Assembly (NCBI GenBank): GCA_024137785.1
Contig: JAHRHZ010000022.1
Span: forward strand, 22,984,977 to 23,048,976
DNA length: 64,000 nucleotides
Direction: 5' to 3'
DNA from: Ginglymostoma cirratum
Lineage: Eukaryota
Of the stretch, positions 16,564 to 63,517 are shown one piece after another. The notes beneath the pieces are model-generated. The model ran no database searches and was not told where the DNA came from. It saw only the letters and a list, made by a program, of their open reading frames with translations. Made by a program: the position numbers and the translations under genes. Position 1 is the first letter of the stretch, and each line of letters opens with the position of its first letter.

Positions 16564-16765
16564 AGATAACAAGGTGTGGAGTTGGAAGAACACAGCAGGC
16601 CAAGCAGCATTGTAGGAGCAGGAAAGCTTGACGTTTCGGGCCTAGGCCCTTCATCAGAAAATGTCAAGCTTTCCTGCTCCTACGATGCTGCTTGGCCTGC
16701 TGTGTTCATCCAGCTTCACACCTTGTTATCTCAGATTCTCCAGCATCTGCATTTCCTTTTATCTC
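16564..16765. mobile_element. Fold-back Penelope-like element, family A
   Basis: Inverted arms; 13-bp TSD tatgtataaatgg at 16551-16563 and 16766-16778. Confidence 0.9.
16630..16657 (-). ncRNA. Minimal type-I hammerhead ribozyme motif
   Basis: Minus strand reads CUGAUGA A GGGC CUAG GCCC GAAAC GUC, an intact core. Confidence 0.75.
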
Positions 16766-18639
16766 TATGTATAAATGGGCCTGTTTCAGATTGCCAACAT
16801 GTGACAAATGGCATCTCGCACAGGTATGTGTTGGGGTACCAACTTTTCATAATTTACATCAATGACTTAGATGATGGAGGCTAAATTTCCAGGTAGCACA
16901 AGGATACGTAGAAAAGTATATTGTGAAGATGACATAACAAAAATGCACAGTGATATTGTGAGGTAAGTGGGCAGATGAAGTATACTGTGGGAGAGTATTA
17001 AGTTCACTTTGGCAGGAAGAAGAAAAATGTGGAGAATTACTTTGGTGGTGATCAACTACAGAAGGATGTGGGCTTTCTAGTGCATGAGTCACAGAAGGAT
17101 AGTTTGGCAGGTATAACATATAATAGGAAAGGACACTGGGATGCTAGTCCTTACTACAACAGGAAGTGAACATAAAAGCAGGATGTCATACTGCAGGTAT
17201 ACAGGGAATTGATGAGACCACATCTCTAATACAGTGCACAGTTTCAGTCTCATTTATGGAAGGATATAAATACGTTGGATGTGGATCAGATGAGTTATTA
17301 TCACTGGATTGATACCTGGAATGATTGGGTTGTTTTATGAGGAAAGATTGAGCAGGTTGGATTTGTTTTCACTTGACTCCATAAGAGCAAGGGGTGATGT
17401 GTTGCAAGATTGTAAGATCCTGCGTGGTCTTGACAAGGTGGACATGAAAAGGTTTACTCTTGTGGCTGAAATCCAGAAAAAAAGGGACACTTTTAAAATT
17501 AGAGGTCACACTTTTAGGACAGAACTCGCTGCTGCAGAGGGTAGTGGAGGTGGAGTCATTAAATATTTTCAAGAAGGTGGACAAATTCTTGTTAGGTGGA
17601 GGAGTCAAAGGTGTTTGGGGGTAGATGGGAATGTGGGATTTGTAACACAAACAGGTCAATTGTGATATCATTGAATGATGGAACCTGCTTAAAGGGTCAG
17701 TTGCCTACCACTGCTCCTAATTCATCTGCTTGAATGTTCATATAATAACTTACAGGAATTTTTTATTTTCAGAAGATCTCTCAATTGTGCATAAAATTTG
17801 ATGAATTAATCCCTACACTTCAAAAATTATTTTAGGCAATGATTTCAGCACTGTGGTTACTCTGTATATTTATATATAGGTTCCTTATGGAAGAACTTTG
17901 AGCTTAGTTAATTTCACTCACATTTTCAGTGTTCAAGAGCTTTTGTGAAAGTTTCCATGGAGACGTCCTTTGCAAAATCAGTTGTCACAATTGAACAGCT
18001 GTCTTTTCAAATTGAAAATGTCATTCAGTCTACTTTTCATAACAGTGCAATTTGAAAAGGAGGATGTCAGGATGGGCCGTGGTAAAGAAAGTGGTTTTAT
18101 GAGGTGACCCCTGAATTTGATAAGAATACCATTAATAATAAAACAATAGCAAAGTCCACCATCATGAGCTGACATAGCAGGGCCTTATTAACCACACACA
18201 GGAAAAGGACCAACTTGCCTCATTCTAGTTAATATAGTAATGCATTTAAAACACTGTCAACAATATGGTCAATTACCCACTGCTTCTTTTTATTTGTTGA
18301 CCTGTGGTCTTATGTATCTATATATAGCCTTAGTAAACACATGAATATACTTTTTTAAAAAATCAGGTAATCTACTTATTGTCGTGTGGATATGTTTTGT
18401 TTGTCCTTAAGTACCTCATACATTGTAATCATAACTAAATTAAAGACTAATCACTTCAATGCTCAATAGAAAGAAGGACAGAAAGATCATCAAAACAAGA
18501 TGGAGGAAGGAAACAAAGTAAATTGAGCTTTCTATTGCTTTCTGCACGCCCTTTATGTAGCATTGAAGGAAGCAAACAAATGGGACGGATGATTTGAAAA
18601 ATGGAAAGAGGCACAGCTAGATCACTAGAGTGAGATATA

Positions 18640-18985
18640 GAACAGTGGTTAGCACTGCTGCCTCACAGTGCCAGGGACCTGGGTTCGATTCCAGCCTCAG
18701 GCAACTGTATGTGTAGGGTTTGCATATTCTGCCTGTGTCTGCATGGGTTTCCACCAGGTGCTCAGGTTTCCACCCACTGTCCAAAGATGAGCAGCTTAGG
18801 TGGATTGGCCATGCTAAATTGCTCATAGTGTGCAGGGATGTGCAGGCAGGGTGAATTAGCCATGGGAAATGCAGGATTACAGCGATAGGTAGGGGTTGGG
18901 TTCTGGGTGGGATGCTCTTCAGGAGGTCAGTATGGACTTGATGGGCTGAATGGTCTGCTTCCACACTCTAGGGATTCTATGATTC
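18640..18985 (+). mobile_element. HE1-type V-SINE
   Basis: A/B boxes, V-domain and gggattctatgattc tail. Confidence 0.9.
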
Positions 18986-19654: not shown

Positions 19655-19847
19655 GATAGTAGAAACTGCTGATGCTGGAGAATTTGAGACAACAAGATGT
19701 AGAGCTGGATGAACAGAGCAGGCCAAGCAGCATCAGAGGAGCAGGAAAGCTGACAGTTTGGGTCTGGACCCTTCTTCAGAAATGCTTTCCTGCTCCTCTG
19801 ATGCTGCTTGGCCTGCTGTGTTCATCCAGCTCCACACCTCGTTATCT
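19655..19847. mobile_element. Fold-back Penelope-like element, family A (decayed hammerhead on minus strand)
   Basis: Inverted arms; TSD cttcca(t/c)ttcttg at 19642-19654 and 19848-19860. Confidence 0.85.
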
Positions 19848-19849
19848 CT

Positions 19850-20410
19850 TCCACTTCTTGAGTGCTTTTCACATCCTGATAACACTCCACTGCTTCATAG
19901 CCAATGAAGTATTGATTAAATATGGCCATTATTATAGGAAATGTAGTCTGACTGCTACAACAAGGTTCTACACACAGCAATGTGAACGTGACTAGATAAT
20001 CTGTTTTAGTGATATTGGTTGAGCGTAAATATTGACCGGGATACTGGGAGAACTAAAAACAAAGAAATGCGGAAGCTGGAAATCAGAATCAAAAACAGAA
20101 ATTGCTGGAGAAACTCAGCGGGTCTGGCAGCATCTGTGGAGAGAAAGCAGAGTTAATGTTTTAGATCCAGTGATCTATGAGTCCTGAAGTGACCTTTCTT
20201 CAGAACTTATATTAATTCTGAAGAAGGGCCACTTGAACTCAAAACATTAATTCTGTTTCTCTCTCTACAGATGCTGCCAGACCTGCCGAGTTTCTCCAGC
20301 AATTTCGGTTTTTGTTTTTGTACTGGAAGAACTACCCTGCTTTTCTTTGAAATTGAGATATAGGTCTTTTTTAATGTTCACCCAATAGAGCTTAGTTTAA
20401 CATCTCATTC
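19850..20410 (-). mobile_element. SacSINE1-like DeuSINE carrying a PLE insertion
   Basis: Antisense SacSINE1-like tail and core on both sides of 20056-20320. Confidence 0.7.
20056..20320. mobile_element. Fold-back Penelope-like element, family B
   Basis: Inverted arms (gctggagaaactc.gc.ggtctggcagcatctgt); TSD tactgg(g/a)agaacta at 20042-20055 and 20321-20334; decayed hammerhead at about 20218-20248. Confidence 0.85.
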
Positions 20411-20573: not shown

Positions 20574-20922
20574 GGGGCAGCACAGTGGCTCATTGGTCAG
20601 CAATGCTGTCTCACAGCGCCAAGGACTCAGGTTCAATTCCAGCCTCGGGCGACTGTCTGTGTGGAGTTTGCACATTCTCCCTGTGTCTGCGTGGGTTTCC
20701 TCCGGGTGCTATGGTTTCCTTCCACAGTCCAAAGATGTGCAGGTTATGTGGATTGGCCATGCTAAATTCCCCACAGTGTGCAGGCTAGCTAGATTAGCCA
20801 TTGGAAATGGAGGATTATGGGGATAGGGTAGGGGTGTGGGTCTGGATGGGATGCTCTTTGGAAGTTCAGTGTGGACTTGATGGGCCAAATGGCCTGTTTC
20901 TACACTGTAAGGAATCTATGAA
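20574..20922 (+). mobile_element. HE1-type V-SINE
   Basis: Full-length head, V-domain and CR1-like tail; sits inside a minus-strand SacSINE1-like tail. Confidence 0.9.
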
Positions 20923-20989
20923 TTTGTGTCCAGAATGACTCCACAAAGCGTAGTGATGTAATGACAGTGATGTTATTCAAAGATGAGTC

Positions 20990-27448: not shown

Positions 27449-27680
27449 AAAAACCAAAGATGCTGCGGATGCTGTTAATTAGAGACAAAAATTGAAGTTG
27501 CTGGAAAAGCTCAGCAGGTCTAGCAGCATGTGGAGAGAAATCAGGGTTAACGTTTCGAGTCGAGTGACCCTTCCATCAGTTCTGACGAAAGGCCTTCAGA
27601 CCTGAAATGTTAACTCTGATTTCTCTCCACACATGCTGACAGACCTATTGAGTTTTTCCAGCAATTTCTACTTTAGCTTC
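27449..27680. mobile_element. Fold-back Penelope-like element, family B
   Basis: Inverted arms; + strand hammerhead-like CUGACGA...GAAAUGUU at 27582-27611 and a decayed antisense copy. Confidence 0.85.
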
Positions 27681-28732
27681 TAAAAACACTGCAAAACTTT
27701 TTTATATCTTAAAGGGGCTTACCTGCATCCAAAGGGTGTTCAATTCCACCATCTTGCTTTTTAAACCAACTTAGAAATGTTAAAAAAAAGCATAATGTCA
27801 CAACTTTTTATTTGGCTCATATGCCTGTTATTTTTAAAGTTACAACAAAAGAAGGAGCTATATGAGATATATATATTGTATATATGAAATTTTTGAAGAC
27901 TATTGAGCAATGCAGCAAAGATGAACAATAAACCCCTGAATATGGATTGGTATTCCAGTGATGTTCTGTTATAATTTCAGTTATTCAAAGAAAGAATCTT
28001 CATTTCGTAGATTAATGAGTAACTGATAAGAATTTTGACTGTCTGTCTTCCTTTATCACTTGGGGAAAAGGAGGATTGCAGAGAATAAAATCAAAAGTTT
28101 CCAATGTTTAGAAAATCAACTTAAGGTCCAATCAACTTCAGGATTCACAACCTTGTGTCATGTCATACCATTATCAGCTGGGTAACAGTTCGTAGGCAGA
28201 TGTTGGTGTAAAAGTGTGGAATGTGAATTCATCTCAACTAGCCCAGCTGAATGGCTGATGGAACTGGTTCTTACTTCTATACCTATCAATCTTTCCAAAA
28301 GGCCCTTCTAGACAAACCAGAAAATGAGACCATCAGCACACTGCAAGAAGAGGGATGCACACCGTCGCAGGACAGTAGCAAGTTCAGGTGCTTGAGTCAG
28401 CAACAACTTCTGCAGCCGTCATCAAGAACAGTAAAACATTCAATTGCTTGCAAAATATGAATTTCGCATCCACCAAAAATGTCCAGCATTTTGTGACATA
28501 TGGAAGCTTTGTTCTGAAGAGTACATTGGGCTAAAATGAAGGCTAAGTGTTTGGAGGAACCAAAAGTGCAACTAAATCTTTTTTCCACAGCAGCATGTGA
28601 GGAACAGCCAACCTAGGAACAACACCAAACACGTTTCCAAACTGTCATCCATGGCACACGAGCATGTCAGTGAAATCCAAGAGGTAACTGCAACCTGACA
28701 GCTTACACTCCAGACAGATAGAACATGTAGTT

Positions 28733-28911
28733 TAAAAGCCAAAAGAAATGCAGATGCTGTAAATCAGAAAGTAAAGTTGCTGGAAAAGCTTAGCAGGTCT
28801 GGCAGCAACTGTGGAGAGAATTCAGAGTCATCTCAGGTGACCCTTCCTCAGACCTCTGTTCTGAGGAAGCGTCATTGGACCTGAAACATTAACTCTGATT
28901 TCTTGTCACAG
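28733..28911. mobile_element. Penelope-like element, family B, partial fold-back
   Basis: Family B arm plus CUGAGGA A GCGUC AUUG GACCU GAAACAUU at 28861-28890. Confidence 0.8.
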
Positions 28912-29231
28912 TACACGTGTAAACTTGATACACAAAATTGGCCCTGACGGAAAAGCTTGCGCCTATTCCTCCATCAAGTGATATAGCCTGAAAGGGATGA
29001 ACTATACACCAAAAGTAACAATGGTGCAAGTGTAAATATCATCCTTTACACATACTACAAGAGATGTAGTAAGGAAACAGGCACCATATAGAGCAGAGAT
29101 AACAAGGTGTCGAGCTGGATGAACACAACAGGCCAAGCAGCATCAGAGGAGCAAGAAGGCTGACGTTTCGGACCTAGACCCTTCTTTCGGGCCTAGACCC
29201 TTTCTGAAGAAGGGTCTAGGCCCGAAATGTC

Positions 29232-29631
29232 NNNNNNNNNNNNNNNNNNNNNNNNNNNNNNNNNNNNNNNNNNNNNNNNNNNNNNNNNNNNNNNNNNNNN
29301 NNNNNNNNNNNNNNNNNNNNNNNNNNNNNNNNNNNNNNNNNNNNNNNNNNNNNNNNNNNNNNNNNNNNNNNNNNNNNNNNNNNNNNNNNNNNNNNNNNNN
29401 NNNNNNNNNNNNNNNNNNNNNNNNNNNNNNNNNNNNNNNNNNNNNNNNNNNNNNNNNNNNNNNNNNNNNNNNNNNNNNNNNNNNNNNNNNNNNNNNNNNN
29501 NNNNNNNNNNNNNNNNNNNNNNNNNNNNNNNNNNNNNNNNNNNNNNNNNNNNNNNNNNNNNNNNNNNNNNNNNNNNNNNNNNNNNNNNNNNNNNNNNNNN
29601 NNNNNNNNNNNNNNNNNNNNNNNNNNNNNNN
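29232..29631. other. Assembly gap (400 N)
   Basis: Run of N. Confidence 1.
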
Positions 29632-29649
29632 TCAGAAATGGGGCCATTT

Positions 29650-29677
29650 CTGAAGAAGGGTCTAGGCCCGAAACGTC
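29650..29677 (+). ncRNA. Minimal type-I hammerhead ribozyme motif
   Basis: CUGAAGA A GGGU CUAG GCCC GAAAC GUC; a near-identical motif lies at 29204-29231. Confidence 0.75.
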
Positions 29678-31334
29678 AACCTTCCTGCTCCTCTGATGCT
29701 GCTTGGCCTGCTGTGTTCATCCAGCTCGACACCTTGTTATCGCAGATTCTCCAGCATCTGCAGTTCCTACTATCTCTGAAACCGTATAGAGCAGTCCTTG
29801 TAAGAAGCTAACTATGTATAATGGTCTTCATAACTCATGCATTGGTATTCTCTGTTAAATATCAATGTGCCTTTCAGGATGGATACCTGATGCCTTATTA
29901 CCTTTGACACAGTGGCACCTCTATCCATGGTCTACCAACATGCAGATCTAAATATCTCATCGATCCACAAGGTAACTTACATGTCAAATCCAACATCAAA
30001 GGTTCCAGATCGTAACACTGAGGCTGCACATGATCTGGCTGACCCTTACCTCGACTGTTTTGACTCAATTGATAAAAGTGATGCAGGCTTAATCTAAAAG
30101 ATGATGCCCAACCCAGCATCAACATTCCTTGTAGGTGGATTATTCACATTCAGGATAAAATCAAACTGGAATTAGATTCCTTGGTATGCAACAATAACAT
30201 TTCTAAAATGGAGCATCAGGCTGGCTGGTGCAGCTCCATTACTTGTGTTTTGAAGAAAGATGGTATGCTATGTGTATGTTCAGATCAGACGTGACTGAAC
30301 ATTGCACTAGCGAGATCTCCATACAAGATTACAGCTGTGAAAATTCTCAGGTGCCAAGTGTTTTTTCCAAATTTGATGCCAAGAATTGGTATTAGTTCAT
30401 ACTTCATTACATTAAGTTGGATGAACTGATTATTTTTTGGAACACTTTTCATTAGATATTGAAGTCTTTAATTTCATCTTTTCAAGAAAGATGTCAATAT
30501 TGTTCTTAGTCCTAAAGGAGTCAAAGAATTCAGTAAGAAAGCAGGAACAGGGTGAGTTAGATGATTGACTAATGATCATACTAAATGGGGGAGCAGACTC
30601 AAAAGGCCGAATGGCCTACTTCTGCTCTTGCATTACATGTTTTTACGTGGTTTCGTCAGGTAACTATTTGGACTATTTGTTAGCAAGGAAATGTTCCAAC
30701 GACATATGGATCTTATCATTGAGAATCTGTCACATAGTTTCTGTATTGCAGACGATACAGCAGTTCTCTGGAAACTGAACATGAGCATGACACAAACCTC
30801 CATCAACTTAAGGGGGCAGCAGCAAGAGAACACAGTCCCATTTTTAACACAGCCTGGGTTTGAGTCCCACCTCCACCAGAGGTGTGGAATAATATCTCTA
30901 AAGGTCAATTAGAAGATATCTACTGTGTTGTACATGGATGGGTCACAGAAAGGACTGAGAGCATGTGAGGATGACACAGAGAGACTACAGGGGGATATTG
31001 ACCGGTTAAATTAGTAAGCAAAAACTTAGCAGATGTAATACAATATAGGAAAACGTGAAGTTATGCACTTTGGCAAGAAGAATAGAGAAGGTAAATATTA
31101 TTTAAATGGGGAAAGATTACAGAAAACTATGGATTAGGAAATCCTCATCCATAAATCACAAAAAAACACTAGCCTCCAACTTCAATGAATAATCAGGAAG
31201 GCAAGTTAACTGTTCATTTCTAAAGAAATTGAGTATAAAAATAGTGAAGTCTTGCTAAAATTAATGATAGGCACTAGTCAGACCGCAGCTGGAATACTGT
31301 GAACTGTTTTGGACCCCTTTTATCTAATACCATA

Positions 31335-34710: not shown

Positions 34711-36940
34711 CTGACCATACAAAGCTAACTGAGGAAACATATACTAGCATCTGCTGGAGTCCAGAGAAGGTTCACCAGGCTGGTCTTGGGGTATGGTGGT
34801 ACTGTCTAGTTAGAAGTTGGGTAAGTGGGCCTGTACTCGTTGAAGTGAAAGAACAAGAGATTACCTTCTGGAAACATACAGGACTCTTAGGAGACTAGAC
34901 AGGGTAGATATGGAAGTGTTCTTCCCCTTGTGGGTGAGTCTAGGACTACAGGGCATCATCTCAGAGTGAGGGGTTGACCATTTCAGACAGAAATGAGGAG
35001 GAATTTCTTCTCGGAGGGCAGTGAATCTGTGGAATTCTTTACTGCAGAGTGCTGTTGAGACTGGGTCATTAAGTGTATTCAAGGCTGAGACATGTTTTAA
35101 TCAGCCAGAGACTCAAGGATCATAGAGAAAAGCCAGGGAAGTGTAAAGTTGGAGATTATCAGATCAAACTTAATCTCATCGGCTAAGCAGGCTTGATGGG
35201 CTGAATTGCCTATTTCTGCTCCTACAGTTTATGGTCTATTACAGGATGACAATCCAATTGCGTTCTAAAATTCCTACAACAACAGCTCAGTCAAAGTACT
35301 TCAAGATAAAAGAGGTAGCTTCTGCTTTAGTTTTTAGAAATAATAAAGTTCATATTTGGCAGCCACTTCATTATTCGTGCCGGCTACAGCCCATCGGAAA
35401 CAATCTGTTAAAAACCTCTTACAAGTGCACCGCCCTGACTTGTGAAGATACAATGGTTCAATTTTGAAGTACAATATCATCCGGGCTCACAGATGACTAT
35501 TCCAGATACTGCTGTCAATTCCAAATCCCACTAGGAACAAAGATAGACTTGCAAATGGGTATTGTTGAATCTGAGTTTGAAAACAGTCTCCACATGGATC
35601 TCGTTGATTTTGATCATAGCCAAGGAGAAAACATTCAACAAGCTACATCGCACGATGTTCAGTCGCAACATCTCAAAAATACTGCCATCAGCAGATACCT
35701 TGAATATATTTAACAGGTTCCTGAGCAAGTACCTATTCTTTTTGGTCATTTGGAGTTGGAAAAGGACTCTTTAGGAATGTCATTTCAAATGTAAACAAGT
35801 GATTATTTTAGAAGCTGTCCATCATAATTTGTGATAGAAATATAGTTCACATGGATGCGGAAAAGAACCTATGTGAATCTATCCATTGGCCTGGCATCAA
35901 TGAGAATGTTGATCAAATTGCGAGAAGCATGCCAATTCCATCAACCTCAACAATTGAGAGCACTTGTCATTCCACACAAGCTTCTTTCCTGCACCATAAT
36001 GCAAGATTGCAACTGATATTTCGATGTCTAGTGACTGACTACTTCAGGAAATTCCCTTTTTGTGACATAGGTCAAAAATGCCACTAGTATGACAGCTATT
36101 GACACAATGGCCACCATATTCAACAATGTTTGATGTTCGTCAACTAATTTTGTCCAATAATTGTCCGCAGCACACGAGGACACCCTTGCAAGACATGCAG
36201 GAAGAGGGTATCCTCTCCTCACAATCTTCAATCGAATGATCTTGCAGAATGTACTGTTTATACAATGAAGTCCAATATCATTAAGTGCAAAACTACTTAC
36301 TAAGATTTTCATATAGATCTATGCTACTCCTCTAAGTAACGTTTTATTCTCATCAGCAGCTGCTGTGTTTGAAAAACACATCCACACAGTTTTCTATCAC
36401 ACTCGCTTACCATCCAATCACAGATACATGATGCCTTGTCGGAATAAAGGAAGAAAATGGTATCCTGGTATGAGCAACAAGCGCACACTCAGTTATCCCA
36501 GCTTGAACCTGAACAAAAATTGTGTCCGAGTTTGAGGTTTCCATATGAGTACTTGGGTTTGTGAAAAGGAACTGCAATAGCATGCCCAGCCCAGTTCATA
36601 CAGGATTGTCATAAACAGTTATCAAACCCTGCAACGAAACAAAAACAAAGCCCAGTTGTACATGACCAATGGTCTGTTATACATTCAGCAACAGAGTCTT
36701 CATTTTGTATTGCACAAGCAGACATCCATGATGCACGATACACATCCATCCATAACGACAGGCAGGGCACCACAGAGTGAAGCAATACAACTAAGTTGTG
36801 ATAATTGCTTATGGACCACATCTGATTGTGTTGTACATCTGCCAAAGTGTTACACTAATGTTTAAATACAACATATCCATGTGCATCTTCGTATATATTT
36901 ATCAGAAAAAAAATCCTATTCGTCAAGGGGGAAAGGGGAA

Positions 36941-40612: not shown

Positions 40613-41173
40613 AAAAACCAAAAGAATTGCAGATGCTGTAAATCAGGAACAAAAACAAAAGTTGCTGGAAAAGCTTAGTGGGTCTGGTAGCATCTGTTAA
40701 GAAGTATCAGAGTTAACATTTCAGGTCCAGAAACCCTTCCTCAGAACTGATGGTAGCTAGGAAAATGTTGGTGTATATGCAGAAGATAGGGTAGGGGAGG
40801 GAATAAGGAATAAATGATAGATGGGGATAGAGCCCAAAGAGAGAGAACAGTTGGATAGACAAAGGAGTTGATGAAGATCTGGCTAGGAGGGTGAATAGCT
40901 GTTAGTGGAGACTGTTAGTAGCTAACAACAGGTAGTGTGTAATGGCAGACTGTGACAACAAGGCCTGGTGTGTGGGGTAGGGGCCTAGGACATGGGAGAG
41001 TTCAGGCCCTAAAATTTATTGAACTCAATATTGAGTCCAGAGGGCTGCAGGGTCCCCAAACGGAAAGTGAGGTGTTGTTCTTCCAACTTGCACTGAGCTC
41101 CGCTGGAACACTACAGCGAGCCTGAGACAGAGATGCTGGCCAGGGAACAGGGTGATGTATTAAAGTGGCAGGT
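40613..41173 (-). mobile_element. 5'-truncated Penelope-like element, family B, with GIY-YIG C-terminus and terminal repeat
   Basis: Minus strand translates CHFNTSPCSLASISVSG...AQCKLEEQHLTFRLGTLQPSGLNIEFNKF*; TSD aagtg(t/c)cttcag at 40601-40612 and 41174-41185. Confidence 0.9.
40715..40744 (-). ncRNA. Minimal type-I hammerhead ribozyme motif (family B)
   Basis: AGUU CUGAGGA A GGGUU UCUG GACCU GAAAU GUU AACU; 4-bp stem I AGUU/AACU. Confidence 0.65.
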
Positions 41174-41825: not shown

Positions 41826-42696
41826 TGCATCTTCAGGGATTTTCCTTCAATATATGAGCTTCATTCCCTTACCTTAATGCAGGTAAACCTTGGAAGAGTG
41901 TCAAATATCTGGACAGAATCCGAAGATCGTCAAGTCAAATTCTGAGGTATCAATGTAGCATTTCACTGTGCAATATTTGATCCAAACCAGTTCCATTCAG
42001 CAGGTGATATTGCCATACGCTCAAGCATCACAGAAGTATAATATTTCAATATCTTGTCAGTGCTGTAAGAGTTGTTTTTAGTATCTGATATGTCCAAGAG
42101 ACTCTCTGGAGTGGGAATTTTTGGATGTGTGATAATATTATTGTCCATAAGTGTCTTGTTTATTGGCAGCTGAAGCAAAAACATGACCTCTGTTTAAGTG
42201 ATCCGTGCGCACTGCATTTACGAGTTTAATTCAGAGCATGAAACCCACTGTTGAGTGCCAGATAGGGTTGTCCATTCTGGTCAGATGTCCATGGAAGATT
42301 TACCACATCTCCTCTGTCCATACATTACCGCCATTGCTCACATGACATGTCCATATCACAGCACCGCACCTTCCAATGACCAGAGCAGAAGTGGGAAGAC
42401 TCTTTATTACCTAATTAGAAGATTCTTGTCTGCGGTCAAGCATACTCCTTTCTCCAATGTTAATTGTATATTAATTGTGTTCAGTGGAGTCTAGTGGGGC
42501 TCAGTAACTGAGGATTCATTTGAGATCCGTATAAATACACACAGCCTAAAGCTGTGGTTGTTGACTAGGAGGTATGTGCTTATAATGCAGGACTCTACTT
42601 TTACTGTTCATCAATTGGCTTTCTGAAGTAGAACATTTAATATTTTTGTAGCAAGTAAACTAATAATCATGTCCAAGACATTCTTTTCTTTAACTG

Positions 42697-42856
42697 AGAT
42701 AACAAGGTGTGGAGCTGGAAAAATATTTTCTGAAGAAGGGTGCGGACCTGAAACGTCAGCTTTCCTGCTCCTCTGATGCTGCCTGGCCTGCTGTGTTCAT
42801 CCAGCTCCACACCTTGTTATCCCAGATTCTCCAGCATCGGCAGTTCCTATTATCTC
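42697..42856. mobile_element. Penelope-like element, family A, with a short inverted arm
   Basis: TSD ttttctttaactg at 42684-42696 and 42857-42869. Confidence 0.9.
42730..42757 (+). ncRNA. Minimal type-I hammerhead ribozyme motif
   Basis: CUGAAGA A GGGU GCGG ACCU GAAAC GUC. Confidence 0.7.
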
Positions 42857-42879
42857 TTTTCTTTAACTGCACCTATTAT

Positions 42880-44480: not shown

Positions 44481-46204
44481 TCATTATATCCATGTGTCTC
44501 TCTCTCTCTCCACAGAAGCTGCTAAACCTTCTGAGTATTACCAGCACTTTTCGTTCTTATTTTAGGTTTCTGCAGAACGTTGATTTTGTGTTTGTAAGGA
44601 ATGGAGATCCCAGGGTACCACCAGCTGTTCTTAGATGAGTCATTGCCTATGGGAGAGGAGGGCTGAATACTGAGGAGCTGAAAGGAAAGCTTGATGATGT
44701 TGGATAACCTCTTGATCAAGTGTAGATGAAGCCCACATCAATCAGCAAATAATCTGCAGTAGAACAATCACCTTGATCTGAAAATTTACCACAAGCAGAG
44801 ATAAATCCCATGATAACATAAGTAAATGAAATGAATCCACTAGAGGGAAAATTCTGCCTGGCTGGGGAAGAAATGCACAAAATGGTATTTTCTCCTTCTT
44901 TACTTTCTTCAATACTTATGCCAAAATTAAAAGGGAATTGTTGTCTCTGCTGCTTGATGGTCTAATGATCTGAAACAAACATTTTAAAAAGGTGACCTGA
45001 TGGTCTTCCTTCTTGGAATGGGATCATCGGGAACTGAGGCTAGACTCCTCCTGGTCCTGCCAAGGTAGGCCTGAGGGCAGAACTGGGAGCAAACCTGACC
45101 CTGAGGGTGTTGGGTCAGTGGCTAGATGCTAATCTGCCTCTTTGGGTGATCGCATCAGAGGAGAGATCATACTGGATTCAGAAGAAACTGCCCAGCAGAG
45201 CCTCAGAAATGAACAATGGCAACTTGATTCCCCTAGGACTGTGTTTCCAGTAGATCACAACTAAAGATACAGGGTGTCCTGTGAAAGGATATCTCCTCAA
45301 CAGTATTGGCCTGGCAATCATGACAACACTAACTTTTAAATATTTTTTCAGATCTTCAAAAGCTACTTCCAAAGTGAGACACCTTTTGTCTCCCTCACTG
45401 GCTGTGCCACCCTCTCCCAGTGGGACATGCTGGGTGCTCGGAACCTTCCCATTGGTCCTTCTTTGCTCGGAGAAGCTCCAAAAGAGACTGGGCAGATAGC
45501 AGATGGAATGCACACAGCTTTGGGGTCAGGACTCACGTATGACCCAGAATGAGGAGAGATGATTCGGCCCCTTAAATCTCCCAATCTCCCCATGATCAGG
45601 TAGATCCATAAGTTGCTGAGCATTTTTCAGTTCAAATGCATTGCCAGCTCAAACACCCCTAAGCCTTTCTGATGGCTGCTAATGGTACCCTCCCACATGT
45701 ACTTTCTCAATTCAAGCCTAATCCCATTGGACTGTAATCTAAATCAAGGCCCTGGTCATCTCTTTGACAGGAATTTCAGCTCCTCAGAAATCAAGATCAG
45801 AGAGTTAATAAAGAGGTTGTCAGAAATGAAGACATCATCTCATACATACACAGCGAAGGCAAGGTGCACTGCCAAGCCAAAAGTAAGGATTTCAATAGAC
45901 ATTCTATCTCATCCACGCTGTACCTGAGATGGCTTGAGGCTGTCAGTGGAGAAATTATCAATCACGTTACACTGTCATCCGTCACCTTGACGAGAGACAC
46001 AGTCCTGAAGAACAAATCCTCTTCCCTGTGGATTGAGACTGAGCCTCCGCAAGGAGCAGACTCTCAGAAGAAAAAAATAGATACAAGCTGCATATTGGCT
46101 GCTGCTGATGGAGTTCTGGCACAGTAAATGCATGCAGGTTGGAGGCCAAGTTGTGCATTATAATTAGATTATGCATGATGCAGATAAGTGTGTCACGATA
46201 GCAC

Positions 46205-50126: not shown

Positions 50127-50252
50127 AGAGCTAATAGGTACCGCAGATGCTGGAGAATCCGAGATAACAAGGTGTAGAGCTGGATGAACACAGCAGGCCA
50201 AGCAGCATCATAGGAGCAGGAAAGCTTGACGTTTCGGGCTTGGACCCTTCAT
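50127..50252 (-). mobile_element. Penelope-like family A single arm, truncated inside the hammerhead core
   Basis: Matches 59840-59962 and stops at ...cccttcat, so the CUG of the core is missing. Confidence 0.85.
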
Positions 50253-52514: not shown

Positions 52515-52612
52515 GTTCTGAGGAAGGGTCACCAGACCCCAAACGTTAATGCTGATTTCTCTTCACAGATGCCATCAGACCTGAGCTTTTCCAGCGATTT
52601 CTGGTATTGTTT
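52515..52612 (+). mobile_element. Penelope-like family B terminal fragment with mutated hammerhead
   Basis: CUGAGGA A GGGUC ACCA GACCC CAAAC GUU at 52518-52547; catalytic G12 replaced by C. Confidence 0.8.
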
Positions 52613-53447
52613 AAGATAGTGTGTTGTTGGGTATAGCAAAGGAATCCAGCAAGGAATCTCAACAGGGATCTGTGGAATCTGATAAATCTCTGGTAATCCC
52701 CCCAACAAAATCCTGCCAATGCAGCTGAGTGCAACTAAATATGGCAGCAAAAATTTGCTGAATAGCAGTAACTACAAATCCCAGCCTTCCTCCAGTGACA
52801 AAGAGGATCATGCATTTCCTCTCACATGACAAGTTCTATTCTTCTGACATTTTTCTTGGGAGCTGCAGCCATGTGAACAATAAATATGATGTAAGTCTTT
52901 TGCAATGATCCTGAATTCCAGTTTAAGCTTAACCCAGTTAATGACACTGGAACCCAATTGACAGCTGAGCCAATTCCAGGTCAATAGCCAGTCTTTAGAG
53001 GAGCAATCATTGAGGTGGTGAACCAGGTCACCAGAGCAAGCGGATTGGGAATATGTCAACTGGAAAATAGGATTTTGAATGTTAAAAACACAGCCACTTT
53101 GTAAGCGCATTACAGAAGAGATTTGGCTGATTATATTTGTTGAGGGCATTGATCTAGATTCCAATGTAAGCACATGGAAGCTTGAAACATCTAGACAATG
53201 GAATGAGGTAATGTCCTGGGTGAAAACTTTAAAAGGCGAGTACTCCCTATAACGAACAGAGGGCTGGCTGTGTACTGCTGCAGTCCTTTTGATGAGTGTT
53301 TTGTTCATTCAGTGGAGAGATGTCCATTCGACAACTGGAAATATCAACCATTTCTTTTACCTAATGTCAACACCACACTTGTATGATTAATGTACATTGT
53401 ACTGCCCTCAGACTAAATGTAAAAGACAGGAATGGTACAGACTGAGC

Positions 53448-55262
53448 ACAAAGAAACAAAGAACAAAGGACAGTACAGCACAGGAACAGGCCCTTCGACC
53501 CACCAAAACTGTGCCGACACATATCTTTCTAAACTAAAAATCTTTAGCCTCTACACAGTCCGTATCCATCTATTCCCTGCTTGTTCATGTATTTGTATAT
53601 ATCTCCAGCAAGTCCTCTGGCAGCACATTCCAGGTACTTACCACCCTCAGTGGTAAAACTTGCCTCTCCTATCTGCTTTAAAATTACCCCGTTTTATCTT
53701 AAACCTATGTCCCCTAGTAATTGACATTTCTACCCTTGGTAAAGGACTCTGACTATGCATTCCTCTAATGCCTCTCAACATTGTGTAAATCTTTATTAAG
53801 CTGCCCCTTCATCCTTCAACGTTTAACTGAAAACAAACCAAGTTTGTTGAATCTCTCCAACAGCTAATACCCTCCAAACCAGGCAACATCCTGGTAAACC
53901 ATCTCTGTAGCCTCTCCAAAGCCTCCACATCCTTTGGGTAATGTGGCGTCCAAAACTGTACACAATGTTCCAAATGTAGCCTAACTACAGTTCTGTGCAG
54001 CTGCAGCATGACTTGCTAATTTTTGTATACTATTCCTCAACCAATGAAAGTAACCATTGCCCTGTGCCTTCTGAACCGCCTTATCCACTTATGAGAACTT
54101 TCAGGGAACTGTGGACTTGTATGACCAGATCCCTCTATATGTTGATGCTACTAAGGGTTCTGCAACTTACTGTACACTTCCCTCCTGCATTAGATATTCC
54201 ACAATGCATCATCTCACATTTGTCCAGATTACATTCCATCTGCCATTTCTGCCCAAATCTCCAGTCTTCTATTTCCTTCTATATCCTCTGGCAATTCTCC
54301 TCACTATCCACAGTTCCCCCAATCCTTGAGTTATCAGCAAACTTAAAAATCAGGTCACGTACATTTTCCTCCAAATAATTTATATATATTTCAAGCAACA
54401 GAGTTGCCAGCACTGATCCTACGGAACACCTTTGGTCACAAACCTCCAGTCAGAAAAACACCTTTCCACCCTTCTAATTCTCTGTCTTCTATGACTAAGC
54501 TAATTCTGTATCCAACTTACCAGCTCACCACAGATCCCATGTGACTTCACTTTCTTTATCAGCCTGCCATGAGGGACTTGACACAGACCTTGCTAAAGTC
54601 CATATAGACACAATCTACTGTCTGCCTTCATCAATCATCTTTGTCACTTCCTCAAAAAACTCAATAAAGTTTATGAGACACAACCCTCCCTGCAAAAAGC
54701 CAAGCTTCATATCACAAATAAGTCCATATTTTTCAAATGTGAGTAAATTTTATGCCTAAGTATCTTCTCCAATAATTTCCCTACCACTGACTTAAGACTC
54801 ATCAGCCTATCATTTCGTGGAATATCCTGTTGCCTTTCCTAAACAAAGGAACAACATTGACTATTATGTAATCCTTTGGAACATCTCATATGACTAAAGA
54901 TGATGCAACGATTTTATACAAGGTCCCAACAATTTCTTCAGCTGCCTCCCTCAGCCTTCTGGGATAGATCCCATCAGGTCCTTGGGACTTGTCTACCTTA
55001 ATGCTTTTCAAAAAACCTAACACCTCCTCCTTTTTTTATATTGACATGCCACAGAATATCAACATACCCTTCCTGAGACTCACCATGCAATATATCCTTC
55101 TCCTTTGTGAATACTAATACAAAGTATTTGTTAAAGTCTTCACCTAACTCCCCCGATTCCATTCATAAATTCCCTCCTTTGCCCTTGAATGGACCTACCT
55201 TTTCCGTCGCTACCCTCTTCCTCCGTATATACATGTAAAACACCTTAAGATTTTCCTTAAAA
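53448..55262 (-). mobile_element. CR1 LINE RT and 3' end
   Basis: MLQLHRTVVRLHLEHCVQFWTPHY.KDVEALERLQRWFTRMLPG, plus upstream RT motifs. Confidence 0.95.
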
Positions 55263-55264
55263 AA

Positions 55265-58700: not shown

Positions 58701-59290
58701 TTTAAAGGTTAACAGTTTGTGGTTACAGTGAACCTGGGGGCAATAGGGAGTAAAGGGCCAACTATCCTTAAGGTCTAATAATAGCTACCGAGCATGTGAA
58801 TAAGAGATCATATAGCACTGGGAGACAAGTGCAGCACAGTAGGTCACTGATTAGCACTGCTGCCTCACAGCACCAGTGACGCAGGTTCGATTCCAGCCTC
58901 AAGTGACTGTCTGTGTGGAGTTTGCACAGCGTACCTGTATCTGCAGGGATTTCCTCCAGGTGCTCCAGTTTCCTCCTACAGTCCAAAGATATGCAGGTTA
59001 CGTTAAATGGCTATGCTAAATTGCCCATAGTGTCCAGGGATGTGTAGGCTGGGCTAGGTGGGTTACCCATGGGAAATGCGGAATCAAAGGGATGGGGTGG
59101 GTTTCGTTGGGATGCTCTTTGGAGGGTTGCTGTGAACTCGATGGGCCAAACGGCCATTTCCACACTTTAAGGATACTATGATTAAGTGTGTAGGGTTTCA
59201 GAGCTTCTAGAATACATTGAAAATTGTCTTACCCTCTCCTACATACAGTATGTTAAAGATTATTGATATTTACTATTGAACATTGGGGTG
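55762..59290 (+). mobile_element. Decayed, internally deleted Gypsy LTR element 2
   Basis: LTR pair both starting TGTAGGGTTTCAGAG (55762 and 59189) and sharing tcttacc.tctcc and taaagatt.ttg; gag-like DCIVVG about 56521; protease FKLDAG about 57022-57040. Confidence 0.7.
58829..59183 (+). mobile_element. HE1-type V-SINE inserted just before the 3' LTR of Gypsy 2
   Basis: Head, V-domain and tail; short TSD aagtg. Confidence 0.88.
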
Positions 59291-59937
59291 AACCAGGTCA
59301 TATCAACAAGCCAGACATAATCACACTACAAACCATTTATTATCAAACTGACTCTGGATTCAAACTCAGGACGGAGAGCATAATTTTACATTTTCATTCT
59401 AAGTTTCTTTTCTCCAAACTTGAGTACAGTTTTGGATTACAATTCTATGGACTTCAAAAGCCCTTTCAAAGTGATTATATGTGAACTTAGATAGCAAATG
59501 TGAGTGAATTTATCCACCGTTCATGGGAATGTCCATGGCAAAACTGAATGGATCTTCATGCATTGCCCACATACAACCACTTCCAGCTAGGAATGATTGG
59601 AGAATGACTGTTAGGGCAACATTAGACTTTTTAATCTGTCAGCTTGGATTGGGTCCAAAAACAAATGCCAAGGCTGATAGTTCTTTTTCCAAAGTGGTTT
59701 GGCCCAACAAAGTGACTTGCTTAATTATTTCGGTGGAAATTTAGAAATGAACCATACTGCCGACAGTCTGGAGTCCTATCTGAGCAAGTCCACATAAGGA
59801 TGGCAGATTTCCTTCCCCAGAGGGCATTAGTGAATCTGAGATAAAAGGTACTGCAGATGCTGGAGAATCCGAAATAACAAGGTGTGGGGCTGGATGAACA
59901 CAGCAGGCCAAGCAGCATCATACGAGCAGGAAAGCTT

Positions 59938-59965
59938 GACGTTTCGGGCCTAGACCCTTCATCAG
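59938..59965 (-). ncRNA. Minimal type-I hammerhead ribozyme motif
   Basis: Minus strand CUGAUGA A GGGU CUAG GCCC GAAAC GUC. Confidence 0.8.
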
Positions 59966-60220
59966 AAATGGGGGAGGGGAAAAGGGTTCGCCACCCCCAT
60001 CTCCTATCTACTAACCTCATCCCGCCCCCTTGACCTGTCCGTCCTCCCTGGACTGACCTATCTCCTCCCTACCCCCCCACCTACACTCACCTTTACTGGC
60101 TTCTTCCCCACCTCTTCGACTTGTCTGCCTCCTCTCCACCTATCCTCTCCTCTATCCATCTTCTATCCGCCTCCCCCTCTCTCCCTATTTATTTCGGAAC
60201 CCTCTTCCCCTCCCCCATTT

Positions 60221-60248
60221 CTGATGAAGGGTCTAGGCCCGAAACGTC
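60221..60248 (+). ncRNA. Minimal type-I hammerhead ribozyme motif
   Basis: CUGAUGA A GGGU CUAG GCCC GAAAC GUC; predicted cleavage after C60248. Confidence 0.8.
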
Positions 60249-60534
60249 AAGCTTTCCTGCTCATATTAGTGAATCTGATATGTTTTTAACAGTAATCCAG
60301 TGGTTTCATGGTCACTATTATTAGTTTTTTTAATCACAGAAGTATTGATTAACTGAATTGAAATTTCACCAGCTGCTGAGGTAGGACAAGATTTGAACCT
60401 ATATCCCCAGAGAATTGTGTGACCCTTTGGTTTAATAGTGTTGTAAATTATCTATTAGCACCGACCCCAGTCAATATCCTGGCAGCTTACCAGAAACTGA
60501 GCTCGACCAGCTTTTTAAAAGCTATGCTGCAATA

Positions 60535-61375
60535 ACTGGTCCTAGGCTGGGAATTCTGCAGTGAACAACTCACCTCCTGACTCCCACTTCCCATATATAC
60601 CATTTACAAGGCACCAATCAGGAGTGTAATGGAGTACTGTCCACTTGCAGGCACAGGTATAGCTCCAAAAACACTAAAGAAGCTTGACTCTATCTAGGAC
60701 AAAGAACCCATTTGATTGGCACCATATCCACCAACTTGAACATTCACTTCCTCCAGCGCCAGCACTCAGGGCCAGCAGAGTGAGCAGAATGGGTATGAAG
60801 GAGATGCCATAAGCACTGTCTACTCTGATGATATCATTGGGCATGTGGGCACAACAGCCTCTGTGACAATATCTACCATATCAATGTGACCCACATCTAG
60901 TTTGCTAACATGAAGTAAACTATAGACTGTTAACTACAAAATATTCCCTGAGTTGTAGACGAGGCAGCTTTCCTTTACCACACCAGACCAAGCTGGCCCT
61001 GAAGTTTCGTGCCCTTAAACGGGATAGCGGCAGCAATCTTCATCTTGAGCAGCACCTCATACAACACACAACGAGCTGGCATACCCATCCAACATGGGCA
61101 AGATACATTGCCGAAATTCATAAATCCTCCTTTGGCAACACATTCCAAACTGGCAAACATTACCACCTAGAAGGATAAAGACAGCAGATGCATGGGAACA
61201 TGACCATCTACAAGCTCTCCACAAAGGAACACATTACCCTGAGTTGGAAGTACATTATTGTTCCTTTATCATTATGCTGGATCAAAATTAGTTCCGGAAG
61301 GAGGATCACTACCACTTTCTTGAGGGCAATTAGGGATAGGCTTACCAACCACATCCTTTGGAAAAATTTTGAAAA
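60535..61375 (+). mobile_element. Fragment of the 3983/12220 LINE family, interrupted at about 60783-61085
   Basis: aactcacctcctgactccc and aagaagcttgac; 3' end gagggcaattagggatagg. Confidence 0.75.
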
Positions 61376-63292
61376 ATGGATTGAGTAGCTTGGTGATTGG
61401 ACTATCAATCTAGAGGCATTGGAAGTAGGGGCAACAAATGCTGGAGAACAAGCAACAAAGAGGTCAGAGCCCAATCTCAGTTGGGGGCCTGATCCTGAGG
61501 AGGTCCATTACTAGAGGTGTGGGGTGCAATCAGTTGCATGAGAGAGGTCTGCATTAGAAAGGGGTCCAAACCTATGGGTGCAGGAAATAAGAGGCCAGGT
61601 GGAGTGGAATATCAGTCAGGGAGAAGCCTGGTGGAACTTTGGTAGGGGAATGTGTGCCTTGGAATAATTGGAGTCTTTAAGATAGCTGGGTAGGAGAAGT
61701 CAGAGTTCTCAGTTGAGAAGTTTATGGGGATGGAGTTCAATCTGCCTGGGAATCTTTCCACCACTCGCCCACGCTTCCTCAAAGAGGCAAAACACATGTG
61801 TGAAGATATGCTGATGAAATCTTTAACTACTCAAAGTAGTAACAACCTCCACATTCCCACCATTCTACAGGTAAAGAATTCACTTCTGAATTCCCTGCTG
61901 GATTTATTAGCAACCGTCATGGTTCAAATTATTTAAGTTTTATGTTTTAGACTGAATCAAAATTAGATCATTGCAAAGAACTCACAAATTAAGCACTGCC
62001 AAAGCGGTCTACTGCCATGTTGGGTGTTAAAATCATCACTAAGTTTAGATCAGATCATTTTAGGCCGTTATAATGACTCAACAGCCTCAGGAGAGAACAT
62101 TATAATTTCCCTTAAATGCTCTGCATTTCATGCATGGAGAAAAACAAAAAAAAATAGAAAGTTGCTTCGTCGACATGTGAATAATAAATATCACTGACAG
62201 AAATAAAGTACTGGATGTCCCCTAGTCAGTGCACACTTTGTACCATGTACAAATGCCAAGAGTTGTGACAACAATTATATCCATCCATGTGTTTACATAA
62301 TTTTGTTTCTCTTTAGCAAAACAGAGGCAGCTTGAGCTATTGATAAATGCTTTAATTTAAAAAGGTGTGAAGGGGTGTAGTAACTGGAAAAAAATATAAC
62401 AAGAGGACTTCTGTGAGCGGACGCATTTTGTTTGATAATGCTCCTATAAAGTACTTTAGGACACCTTACTAAGTTGAAGACACTATATAAATGCAGATTG
62501 TTGTATTCAAGCCATAGCATTAAAACCATTATGCAATGATACATAGAAGAGCAACAGTCCTGCTGCCTGACACAAAATTATCACACATCACTAGGACAGA
62601 AATGTAACAATTAAAGTGGTGGAAAAGCTCCTGCAACTGGCTTCCACACACTCCACTGAACCATAACCAGGGAAGAACAGCTTGGTGGGAGGGGCTCCTT
62701 ACCTAACTTGGCCAACTCCAGCTCAGCATTTTCCAAGTTCTATCACATGACCTCCCAATGTCCCAGCCCCGCCTGATCGATGAACATGCCCAACTTGATG
62801 CTGCACCACTTGCCTACAGTCAGTTGGATACTGAAAGACTAGTGAACATTGCTAGGTTCGATGATTGTTGACTACCAGTTAAACATCTTTTCTTTACAAT
62901 CAACACATTTGTATCCAACAAGTAAGTATTGAAAAATACTTTTATTATTTTTATGATTTTTCTCCTGTGTTGCTTTCAGCTGAATCCTGGGAATTAATCT
63001 GTAACCCCTGAAAACTCAGAAGGGTTGGCAATCCCTTTGTCAGAGCAACAAAGATGCATCCTGGTTAGGGTCTCACATAAAAGTGAAGGATGGAAAAACA
63101 TGAGAATCTTAGGCCTGAATTTGTGCTAAAATCCCATCCTCTACCAACTTCCTACAGTTTGTAAAGGGAATATTTACCTTTTACTCCAGAATAATGCATC
63201 AAATATTTGATTTTTTATCTTTAACCATTATTGCCAACCGTCTTCTAACACACCCAGTGCTGACACATTGTCAGGGGTTAGTTCCAATGGAT

Positions 63293-63517
63293 CAAAAACA
63301 AAGTTGCTGGAAAAACTCAGCAGGTCTGGCAGCATCTGTGAAGGGAAAAACAGAGTTAACCTTTCAGGTCCGGTGACCCTTCCTCTGAGGAAGGGTCACC
63401 AGACCCGAAACATTAACTCTATTTTTTCCTTCACAGATGCTGCCAGACCTGCTGAGTTTTTCCAGGAATTTTGGTTTTTTTCCTAATTTACAGCATCCGC
63501 AGTTCTTTCGGTTTTAT
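63293..63517. mobile_element. Fold-back Penelope-like element, family B
   Basis: Inverted arms meeting at cttcctc-t-gaggaag; imperfect TSD ttagttcc(aa/g)tggat at 63278-63292 and 63518-63531. Confidence 0.88.
63385..63414 (+). ncRNA. Minimal type-I hammerhead ribozyme motif (family B)
   Basis: CUGAGGA A GGGUC ACCA GACCC GAAAC AUU; stem I 5' strand lost at the inversion junction. Confidence 0.6.

Follow-up and report, generated by a model that had tools for sequence, protein, structure and literature searches.

We analyzed a 64,000-nucleotide stretch of the genome of the shark Ginglymostoma cirratum (contig JAHRHZ010000022.1, positions 22,984,977 to 23,048,976 of the forward strand), hereafter called the window, to which alone our copy counts refer. 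It holds 12 insertions of short repeats, which fall into two families (A and B) and make up ~4.7% of the sequence; were the genome as dense in them throughout, it would carry ~190 insertions per Mb. A preliminary description of this DNA had listed 12 loci in two families, and we found every one of them at, or a few bases from, the position it had been given. The sequence block said to be common to the two families was borne out by 15 pattern matches (≤3 mismatches), whereas the expectation derived from 100 shuffles was 0.00, and the hammerhead core patterns of families A and B gave six and five matches, against 0.03 and 0.08 expected, respectively. Pfam, applied to 16 of the 65 long stop-to-stop frames, returned one reverse transcriptase (RT) remnant and no host exon.

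Nine of the 12 insertions are inverted, two arms standing head to head as a fold-back, a form that the preliminary description had barely suggested, and we number arm positions from C3 of the hammerhead core, taken as 0. Five of the six family A copies have this form. At 16563..16765, flanked by a 13-bp target-site duplication (TSD; 16551-16563 and 16766-16778), a short minus-strand arm (16563-16660; -3 to +94) with an intact motif at 16630-16657 meets a long plus-strand arm (16659-16765; +21 to +127). At 19655..19848 (13-bp TSD, one mismatch), it is the minus-strand arm that is long (19655-19784; -5 to about +125), its core decayed to 9/11, and the plus-strand arm that is short (19784-19848; +30 to +94). 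The copy at 42696..42856 (TSD of 13 to 15 bp) pairs a long plus-strand arm (42727-42856; -3 to +127), with an 11/11 core and a G10.1-U11.1 pair, with an inverted piece of only 24 nt (42696-42719; +71 to +94). The copy at 59838..60266 (14-bp TSD) has an intact motif on each strand (C3 at 59965, minus, and 60221, plus), one in a long minus-strand arm (59838-59990; -25 to +127) and the other in a plus-strand arm (about 59991-60266; about -230 to +45) that includes a pyrimidine-rich upstream region. The copy at 29096..29776 (14-bp TSD, one mismatch) has an intact plus-strand motif at 29650-29677, but its inner structure is unreliable because a 400-N assembly gap (29232-29631) lies inside it; a 19-nt piece is duplicated in this copy. 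The sixth copy, at 50128..50252, is a single minus-strand arm (+3 to +127) that is cut within the hammerhead core and for which no TSD was found.

Family B has four inverted copies. That at 20055..20320 (14-bp TSD, one mismatch) has a long minus-strand arm with an insertion in loop II and a short plus-strand arm starting at 20216 (-2); it shows G12A and has lost the palindrome. The copies at 27449..27685 and 28734..28911 have no clear TSD: the first has a plus-strand arm with an 11/11 core at 27582 in which U-G replaces C15.2-G16.2, and the second has a long arm with a deletion in the GAAAC box and a short arm (C3 at 28861) that stops early, at about +50. The fourth, at 63293..63517, is a near-perfect palindrome centered on the core itself (63385-63387), with a tailed long arm on the plus strand and a probable TSD containing an indel, whose ungapped score of 8 is not significant alone. 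The remaining two are not inverted. The longest family B copy, on the minus strand at 40613..41173 (12-bp TSD with one mismatch, 40601-40612 and 41174-41185), contains the broken end of an ORF, an ~260-nt 3' region, the hammerhead (C3 at 40744), the shared block, and a tail; that at 52515..52615 is a single, tailless plus-strand arm (-3 to about +98) with no clear TSD and a natural G12C change, in what is otherwise the best-kept family B motif.

Across the 12 insertions, seven have clear TSDs of 12 to 15 bp (score of ≥9, a value reached by 12 of 1970 random pairs), one more has a probable TSD, and none was found for the other four. The tail is present on one arm only and measures 33 nt in family A and about 33 to 35 nt in family B. 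Long arms of family A end at +127 in five of six cases and at +125 in the sixth, short arms end at +94 in four of five, and the corresponding family B ends lie at about +130 to +134 and +96 to +100.

The identity of the repeats as Penelope-like elements (PLEs) could be addressed in the longest family B copy, where the minus-strand ORF end at 41009..41170 resembles the GIY-YIG endonuclease and comprises the C-terminal 53 codons, with one internal stop before its own stop codon. The broken frame (41012-41170) matched 53 proteins at an E value of ≤0.001 (best, 3.7e-14). All six relatives tested returned to the 41009-41170 locus by tblastn (E values of 6e-16 to 2e-9), and 3 of 16 scanned relatives gave a GIY-YIG Pfam match below the cutoff (E values of 0.0009 to 0.008). 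Pfam found no family in the 53-residue piece itself, and when longer proteins were searched by a word index for homologues of the broken ORF, there were four candidates, none significant. Three of 15 aligned relatives (P0030, P0046, and P0009; most of the others do not cover the linker) have a C-x4-C-x2-C linker ahead of the GIY-YIG motifs, and a Zn-finger-like CX2-5CxxC motif lying in the RT-endonuclease linker marks the Neptune clade (PMC8557442). The linker motif was seen in relatives only and is absent from the window, where no copy extends to a PLE-type RT. The window contains no family A ORF remnant, so the PLE status of this family rests on the shared blocks and the architecture. A metagenome scan with the shared block returned no loci. 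We concluded that the 12 repeats are real, short, 5'-truncated PLE end fragments of two families, likely members of the Neptune clade.

The architecture agrees with that of known PLE insertions, in which an inverted 5'-truncated copy, a one-sided tail of 30 to 40 bp, a short TSD, and palindromic junctions occur together (Arkhipova et al. 2013, PMC3846280; Craig et al. 2021, PMC8557442). The TSDs are longer here than in the rotifer examples in those papers (12 to 15 versus 8 to 10 bp), and, unlike those examples, most copies here consist of two terminal arms only (100 to 270 bp).

The motif itself had been assigned to the minimal type I hammerheads of PLEs, and it does fit the type described by Cervera and De la Pena in 2014 (PMC4209133). 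The sections of that paper considered here describe a type I core with an extra base between positions 9 and 10.1, a G10.1-C11.1 pair, a palindromic 15.2-16.2 pair without loop III, and mostly single truncated copies, with opposite-strand pairs 100 to 700 bp apart. Helix II is shorter here (4 to 5 bp, versus 7 to 8 bp in Schistosoma), and helix I of family A, at 2 to 3 bp, also departs from the published motifs. Those sections name no shark, and their 4,000 to 9,000 descriptor hits per genome (coelacanth and Xenopus) would lie far below a density of 12 per 64 kb, although the two counts are not comparable. The extra A after A9 was found in all 14 scored motif arms, and the loops CUAG, GCGG, ACCA, and UCUG and the G12C change at 52518 were as reported. 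The statement that each copy carries the motif held for most, in intact or decayed form, but failed for 50128-50252, where the cut removes C3 to G5.

Conservation of the motif is uneven. The core (CUGANGA/GAAA/UH) is 11/11 in 10 of the 14 arms, the 10.1-11.1 pair is G-C in nine, G-U in four, and A-U in one, and the palindromic 15.2-16.2 pair is C-G in only six, with seven of the remaining eight being CpG transitions (TG or CA). In 5 of the 14 arms, all of them in family A (none of seven in family B), a complete core is accompanied by a stem II of 4 bp and by an ACGU with Watson-Crick pairing; stem I is only 2 to 3 bp in these five arms, four of which belong to inverted insertions whose arms are long. 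CpG cells of the motif departed from the family consensus in 17 of 58 cases, against 5 of 130 non-CpG core cells (p=2e-6), and this decay strikes catalytic positions. The core had been expected to be better conserved than its flanks; between families this was true relative to the linker (11/11 versus 6/19; p=0.0003) but not relative to the downstream block plus tail (37/45; p=0.33). Likewise, non-CpG core divergence within family B (4/72) was lower than that of the whole downstream region (83/520; p=0.02) but not than that of the block alone (24/248; p=0.35), and the lower value could reflect selection, subfamily differences, or alignment noise in T-rich tracts. The named pairs survived in 92.7% of 109 cells and, after shuffling, in 88.8% (12 of 500 shuffles reached the observed value), counts that are weak because the sequences are related and the structure was named from the same sequences.

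Among 18 Rfam matches at an E value of ≤5 there was no hammerhead family; most were miRNA models placed on the fold-back hairpins, all below the gathering score. The closing pair of stem I had a predicted probability of 0.0 in eight of eight folded contexts, which says little about dimers or protein-assisted folding because equilibrium folding never favors the minimal hammerhead monomer. A 7-bp pairing of the block with the tail, predicted for 11 long arms, is unproven because its pairs never covary, and a putative conserved reading frame from an AUG in the shared block was dropped, as a gap ahead of the tail sets the two families apart.

The 5' ends of the arms gather ~3 nt upstream of the core. 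The preliminary description had called for a clustering of the inversion junctions, and such a cluster, with its mode at -3, emerged both in the window and in contigs from a public run. Of 344 public-contig joints, 15 were listed and 11 of these start at -3, joints at -3 accounting for 115 of the 122 X4 contigs in the listed rows (commonest, -3 to -3, with 42 contigs), numbers to be read with two limits in mind: the reference arm reaches only -25, and sequence variants immediately upstream of -3 can shift joints to that position. Joints in which an arm begins at the cleavage site (+28) would scarcely be visible because the reference plus-strand arm ends at +45. The short-arm end was the top loose end among contigs in four of four public runs. 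Contig depth is not copy number and was left out of copy-number estimates. A splice acceptor at helix I is described for Drosophila virilis Penelope (PMC4209133); as a source of the -3 boundary it was rejected, with AG present there in family B and absent in family A.

We are confident of a reading in which the repeats are mostly head-to-head terminal fragments of PLEs, likely of the Neptune clade, in which the hammerhead is likely an inert passenger in most copies, and for which we infer a two-cDNA mechanism. The element's RT-endonuclease would make a staggered cut ~13 bp wide, and both nicked strands would prime reverse transcription on uncleaved element RNA, with each cDNA initiated at either of two internal sites (in family A, +94 and +127). 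The two cDNAs would mostly end a few bases beyond the core, on its upstream side (mode, -3), and would then be linked in head-to-head orientation, either bluntly or by way of short complementary hammerhead stretches. If the hammerhead has a role, it would be in RNA from full-length master elements, either as a dimer or with help from protein; in dispersed copies it would decay, and read-through transcripts would fold into long hairpins. The clustering at -3 agrees with the head-to-head joining of two cDNAs, each target strand having primed one, and the footprints fit the Anolis Poseidon element PAc (Frangieh et al. 2024, PMC11167929), for which the portion of the paper drawn on here reports that both target strands are cut and extended, that two internal RT starts bound the tail, and that insertion, with uncleaved RNA as its template, does not depend on hammerhead cleavage. 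PAc belongs to another clade, whereas the relatives here have a Neptune-type Cys linker; inverted insertions are not discussed in that portion, and the two-cDNA step is based on other PLEs, no shark element among them.

The alternative that survives best, which we regard as possible but rather unlikely, concerns the joining step only and is compatible with PLE identity: the inverted arm would arise at the hammerhead hairpin, where one cDNA would snap back and prime itself or an antisense template would serve for priming. Arkhipova et al. proposed self-priming from palindromes for inverted junctions, which they read as occurring on an antisense template (PMC3846280); the 16659 junction exploits the motif's UUUC/GAAA complementarity, and that at 63385-63387 is a perfect palindrome center. 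Many X4 junctions, however, are blunt or have a few extra letters. At 16564, moreover, the arm after the junction (+127) is longer than its supposed template arm (+94), a result that one cDNA copied back on itself could not yield; at 19655 the order is reversed.

That the copies are PLE stumps whose intact minority act as widespread working ribozymes in host transcripts, forming dimers in trans through the ACGU palindrome, seems improbable. Its attractions are the five arms that retain core, stem II, and palindrome, the density of insertions, the slight excess of kept pairs, and the putative RNA contigs described below. Against it stand the short stem I of those arms, the enclosure of four of them in fold-backs, and the 13,080 bp that separate the nearest intact motifs on the same strand, together with published minimal PLE hammerheads that were inactive as monomers and weak as dimers (PMC4209133) and needed the element's protein (PMC11167929); eight of nine Xenopus dimer elements showed no cleavage. 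The proposal that such copies are a major source of self-cleaving RNA thus fared poorly, most of them lacking catalytic or palindrome bases through CpG decay, no intact same-strand partner lying within 13 kb, and the fold-back arms being predicted to bury the motif. Since most copies have decayed or are, by prediction, trapped in long hairpins, they are probably not a large source of self-cutting RNA; as a count of DNA motifs, "numerous" is plausible and has already been published for other vertebrates.

We consider it very improbable that the copies are nonautonomous retrozymes that are transcribed, cleave themselves, circularize, and reinsert, as had also been suggested. They do resemble non-LTR retrozymes in being short, noncoding, PLE-related, and equipped with a type I hammerhead (Cervera and De la Pena 2020, PMC7229834; Li et al. 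2026, bioRxiv 10.64898/2026.07.22.740005), the latter reporting the non-LTR type in one chondrichthyan, related to the PLE pLTR and with many monomers, and the ends of the short copies are fairly fixed. Retrozymes of this type are head-to-tail tandem units by definition, however, and Tandem Repeats Finder returned two arrays in the window, neither of them a hammerhead array; lacking tandem copies, these insertions do not fit retrozymes. The copies are instead inverted, tailed, and flanked by TSDs, one bears an endonuclease end, and a cleaved circle predicts ends at C17, whereas 19 of 21 arms span the cleavage site and only 1 starts within 3 nt of C17. Least probable of all are MITE-like DNA transposons or assembly fold-back artifacts, suggested by the long inverted arms and by the one copy across an N gap with its duplicated piece, but opposed by ends offset by the tail rather than flush, arms differing by 4 to 25%, junctions that vary between copies, TSD flanks, the endonuclease end, and the recurrence of the same junction class in an independent run.

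The repeats are an ordinary example of a described kind: a 2014 study described hammerhead-bearing PLE fragments dispersed in vertebrate genomes, and an expansion of PLEs has already been recorded for a shark genome. Their potential value lies in very numerous young copies that, with a fixed 5' boundary at stem I and two 3' start sites, could offer a statistical footprint of the PLE insertion mechanism, and in a hint of editing of their RNA in double-stranded form. We tentatively extend the two-cDNA reading, at odds we would place below even, as follows. Both target strands may prime, with uncleaved RNA as template, at the pair of sites that bound the tail, and both cDNAs may run off a fixed RNA 5' end at -3, where stem I begins and where transcription probably starts; the products would be "strong-stop" head-to-head pairs. 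The hammerhead would in that case lie at the extreme RNA 5' end, where cleavage would take away the cap region, and shark transcriptomes would have, in the dispersed fold-backs, a major double-stranded RNA and A-to-I editing substrate. A public-run search with 40400-43000 listed no run recorded as RNA. The family A stretch drew 11,562 to 12,503 contigs from two putative RNA runs, and one putative RNA run showed an A-to-G excess, as expected from double-stranded RNA editing.

All twelve insertions listed in the preliminary description were found in the window, in two families of short Penelope-like element (PLE) end fragments: family A at 16564, 19655, 29097, 42697, 50127 and 59840, and family B at 20056, 27449, 28733, 40613, 52515 and 63293. 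In a pattern search of the window, the block conserved between the families gave 15 matches with at most three mismatches (0.00 expected), and the spaced core patterns of families A and B gave 6 and 5 matches (0.03 and 0.08 expected). The two families sum to 2,963 bases, or 4.7% of the non-gap window; the density of ~190 insertions per Mb is extrapolated from these 64 kb alone and holds only if the window is typical. We concluded that the twelve repeats are real, were correctly recognised and represent an ordinary PLE case. One further fragment, the thirteenth and an older one, lies at 44482-44585 (plus strand); it is related to family B and has the block and a degenerate tail but no hammerhead.

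Of the family B copies, the longest lies on the minus strand at 40613-41173 and starts with 53 codons holding one internal stop. With X at the stop, this piece gave 53 protein matches at E ≤ 0.001 among 1.84 billion proteins, while Pfam assigned the piece itself to no family and a word-indexed homologue search with it found nothing. The ten matched proteins that we looked up comprised six whale-shark gene models, three ray or skate proteins and one metagenome protein, and the assignment of the host to the elasmobranchs follows from them. On tblastn back-alignment, 6/6 relatives landed on 41012-41167, and alignment of 15 of the protein matches identified the matched stretch as the C-terminus of a GIY-YIG domain. 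Among 16 relatives scanned, three had a GIY-YIG match below the Pfam cut-off, and several were chimeric gene models or unrelated repeat proteins. Three of the 15 aligned relatives have, in a part lying outside the window, a C-x4-C-x2-C linker, a type described in PMC8557442 as marking Neptune and Nematis elements; Li et al. report finding only Neptune and Poseidon in vertebrates (bioRxiv 10.64898/2026.07.22.740005). The window copies of family A have no ORF; the two families are identical at 11/11 core positions, at 23/31 block positions and, over part of the tail, at 14/14, and differ in their linkers (6/19 and 12/25 identical). A ray neuromedin-U receptor gene model (P0005, XP_078266213.1) ends in the same PLE endonuclease C-terminus, and PLE fragments seem to have been incorporated into several gene models of elasmobranchs. 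This kind of element is already known, a PLE expansion having been reported in whale-shark introns (bioRxiv 10.1101/443036), and the shark families are further members; judged by title or abstract start, none of the papers listed, those on shark RNA editing included, is devoted to them, subscription papers and repeat databases lying outside the search.

Nine of the 12 insertions are head-to-head inverted pairs of arms (an arm being one copy of the element end, long with a tail or short without) and three are single arms. With hammerhead C3 as position 0, the long arms of family A extend to +127 in 5/6 cases and to about +125 in the sixth, and its short arms to +94 in 4/5, the fifth ending at +45 (60266). 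In family B, all five long arms reach +130 to +134, and the untailed arms end near +96 to +100, except for one that stops at about +50. Seven of the 12 insertions are flanked by TSDs of 12-15 bp that score at least 9, compared with 12/1970 random position pairs; the 63293 insertion is probably TSD-flanked, and comparison of flanks gave no TSD at four of the 12. The architecture is that of the PLE insertions described in PMC3846280, PMC8557442 and PMC2377424, namely an inverted truncated copy, a TSD and an optional one-sided tail of 30-40 bp. Whole inverted insertions are predicted to fold into long hairpins, and a 400-N gap that interrupts one of the palindromic insertions of family A (29232-29631, with a 19-nt near-duplication at 29166-29202) is probably an assembly break at such a hairpin. 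A 7-bp pairing of block (+49 to +55) with tail, predicted in 11 long arms (for example, 59838-59930 and 40613-40705), is nearly invariant in both families, without covariation, and is a candidate structure for RT binding or for the start site. In the family B copy at 20055, loop II of the long arm has an ~19-nt insertion (20171-20190) that forms a small hairpin.

The hammerhead would cleave after +27 in family A and after +29 in family B, and 19/21 arms span this site, implying that the templates were uncleaved. The PAc element likewise uses an uncleaved RNA template: as described in PMC11167929, insertion is normal in its hammerhead mutants, each of the two target strands is cut and extended, and the tail is bounded by two internal RT starts. 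The 5' ends of 14/21 arms, which are not independent where paired, lie between -10 and +10, with one more ambiguous at the gap. We also placed contigs from four public sequencing runs, which may come from related species, on 59790-60310 (51,882 from X4, 12,503 from X3, 11,562 from X1 and 1,345 from X7). In every one of these runs, the loose end with most contigs was 59874 (803, 203, 190 and 34, respectively), three bases inside the +94 end and adjoining a private mismatch of the reference. A +127 loose end occurred in X3 (75 contigs) and X1 (62) and was absent from the X4 and X7 rows among the 24 listed of 1,219. Eleven of the 15 joints listed (of 344) start at 59968 (-3), and these hold 115/122 X4 contigs in the listed rows, the commonest running from -3 to -3 (42 contigs), although variation upstream of -3 may inflate this peak.

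Snap-back of a single cDNA, as a source of the inverted arm, cannot explain the insertion at 16564, because its second arm is longer than its first. We infer instead that two cDNAs are involved: each nicked strand would prime cDNA at either of these starts, and both cDNAs would usually stop near -3 and then be joined head to head. The proposed course resembles L1 twin priming; by title or abstract start, none of the papers listed on Penelope with twin priming and inversion was on this subject. Candidate causes of the -3 stop are a transcription start, an RT pause or a splice site; an AG at the boundary is present only in family B.

The motif matches the minimal PLE hammerhead of Cervera and De la Pena (PMC4209133). 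The extra base after A9 seen in the preliminary description was present in 14/14 scored arms, G10.1-C11.1 was kept in 9/14 and the palindromic ACGU in 6/14; core, stem II and palindrome occurred together in 5/14, all of family A and with a stem I of 2-3 bp. Pairing of the named helices is kept in 92.7% of 109 cells, a value as high occurring in 12/500 shuffles, which is modest support. The expectation that the core would be better conserved than its flanks was borne out in part: across the two families the core is conserved, an outcome that selection on master elements would produce, but the block and tail were equally kept. Within family A, the core was not significantly better kept than the downstream region (divergence 1/58 versus 22/446, p = 0.5); within family B, the difference was significant against the downstream region as a whole (p = 0.02) and not against the block (p = 0.35). 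The motif CpGs (C11.1-G12 and C15.2-G16.2) were off consensus in 17/58 cells, compared with 5/130 for other core bases (p = 2e-6). Methyl-CpG decay is an ordinary process, and here it strikes bases needed by the hammerhead.

Dimer cleavage was reportedly observed by Lunse et al. in 2017. The stem I closing pair had a probability of 0.0 in 8/8 folded contexts, a value that says nothing on dimers, and the nearest intact same-strand motifs (29650 and 42730) are 13,080 bp apart, leaving aside the motif at 29204, which is unreliable across the N gap. Low activity is the published picture for such hammerheads: minimal PLE hammerheads are described as inactive as monomers and weakly active as dimers (PMC4209133), PAc hammerhead activity as protein dependent (PMC11167929) and Xenopus dimer elements as cleaving in 1/9 cases (bioRxiv 10.64898/2026.07.22.740005). 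The suggestion that the copies are retrozyme-like units was not borne out in the window, where neither of the two arrays detected by Tandem Repeats Finder is built of hammerhead units, so that the defining feature of non-LTR retrozymes is lacking there; those elements are defined by tandem units in PMC7229834 and bioRxiv 10.64898/2026.07.22.740005, unlike the window copies.

In run X1, seven A positions in the upstream region of family A (60006-60220) read G at 13.7-23.1% of depth, compared with 0.1-1.2% in X3, whose organism label is that of X1; the ranges for X4 and X7 were 0.2-6.7% and 0-5.7%. A>G accounted for 20/53 variant places in X1, 4/32 in X3, 5/51 in X4 and 10/40 in X7 (40 of 74 rows listed), and four of the seven sites have a TAT context. 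The excess in X1, a putative RNA run, resembles what A-to-I editing would leave in double-stranded RNA.

The window also holds other repeats. A plus-strand frame at 35812-36087, without a Pfam match, resembles by eye the decayed start of an LTR-retrotransposon integrase. LINE-type reverse transcriptase remnants lie at 729-1169 on the minus strand (Pfam RVT_1, E = 2.9e-5) and, as tblastn matches, at 16678-16875 (plus) and 54162-54577 (minus). A dispersed SINE-like repeat of at least 214 nt, D1, occurs at 7723-7936, 18638-18851, 20586-20799 and 58840-59053, with further pieces.
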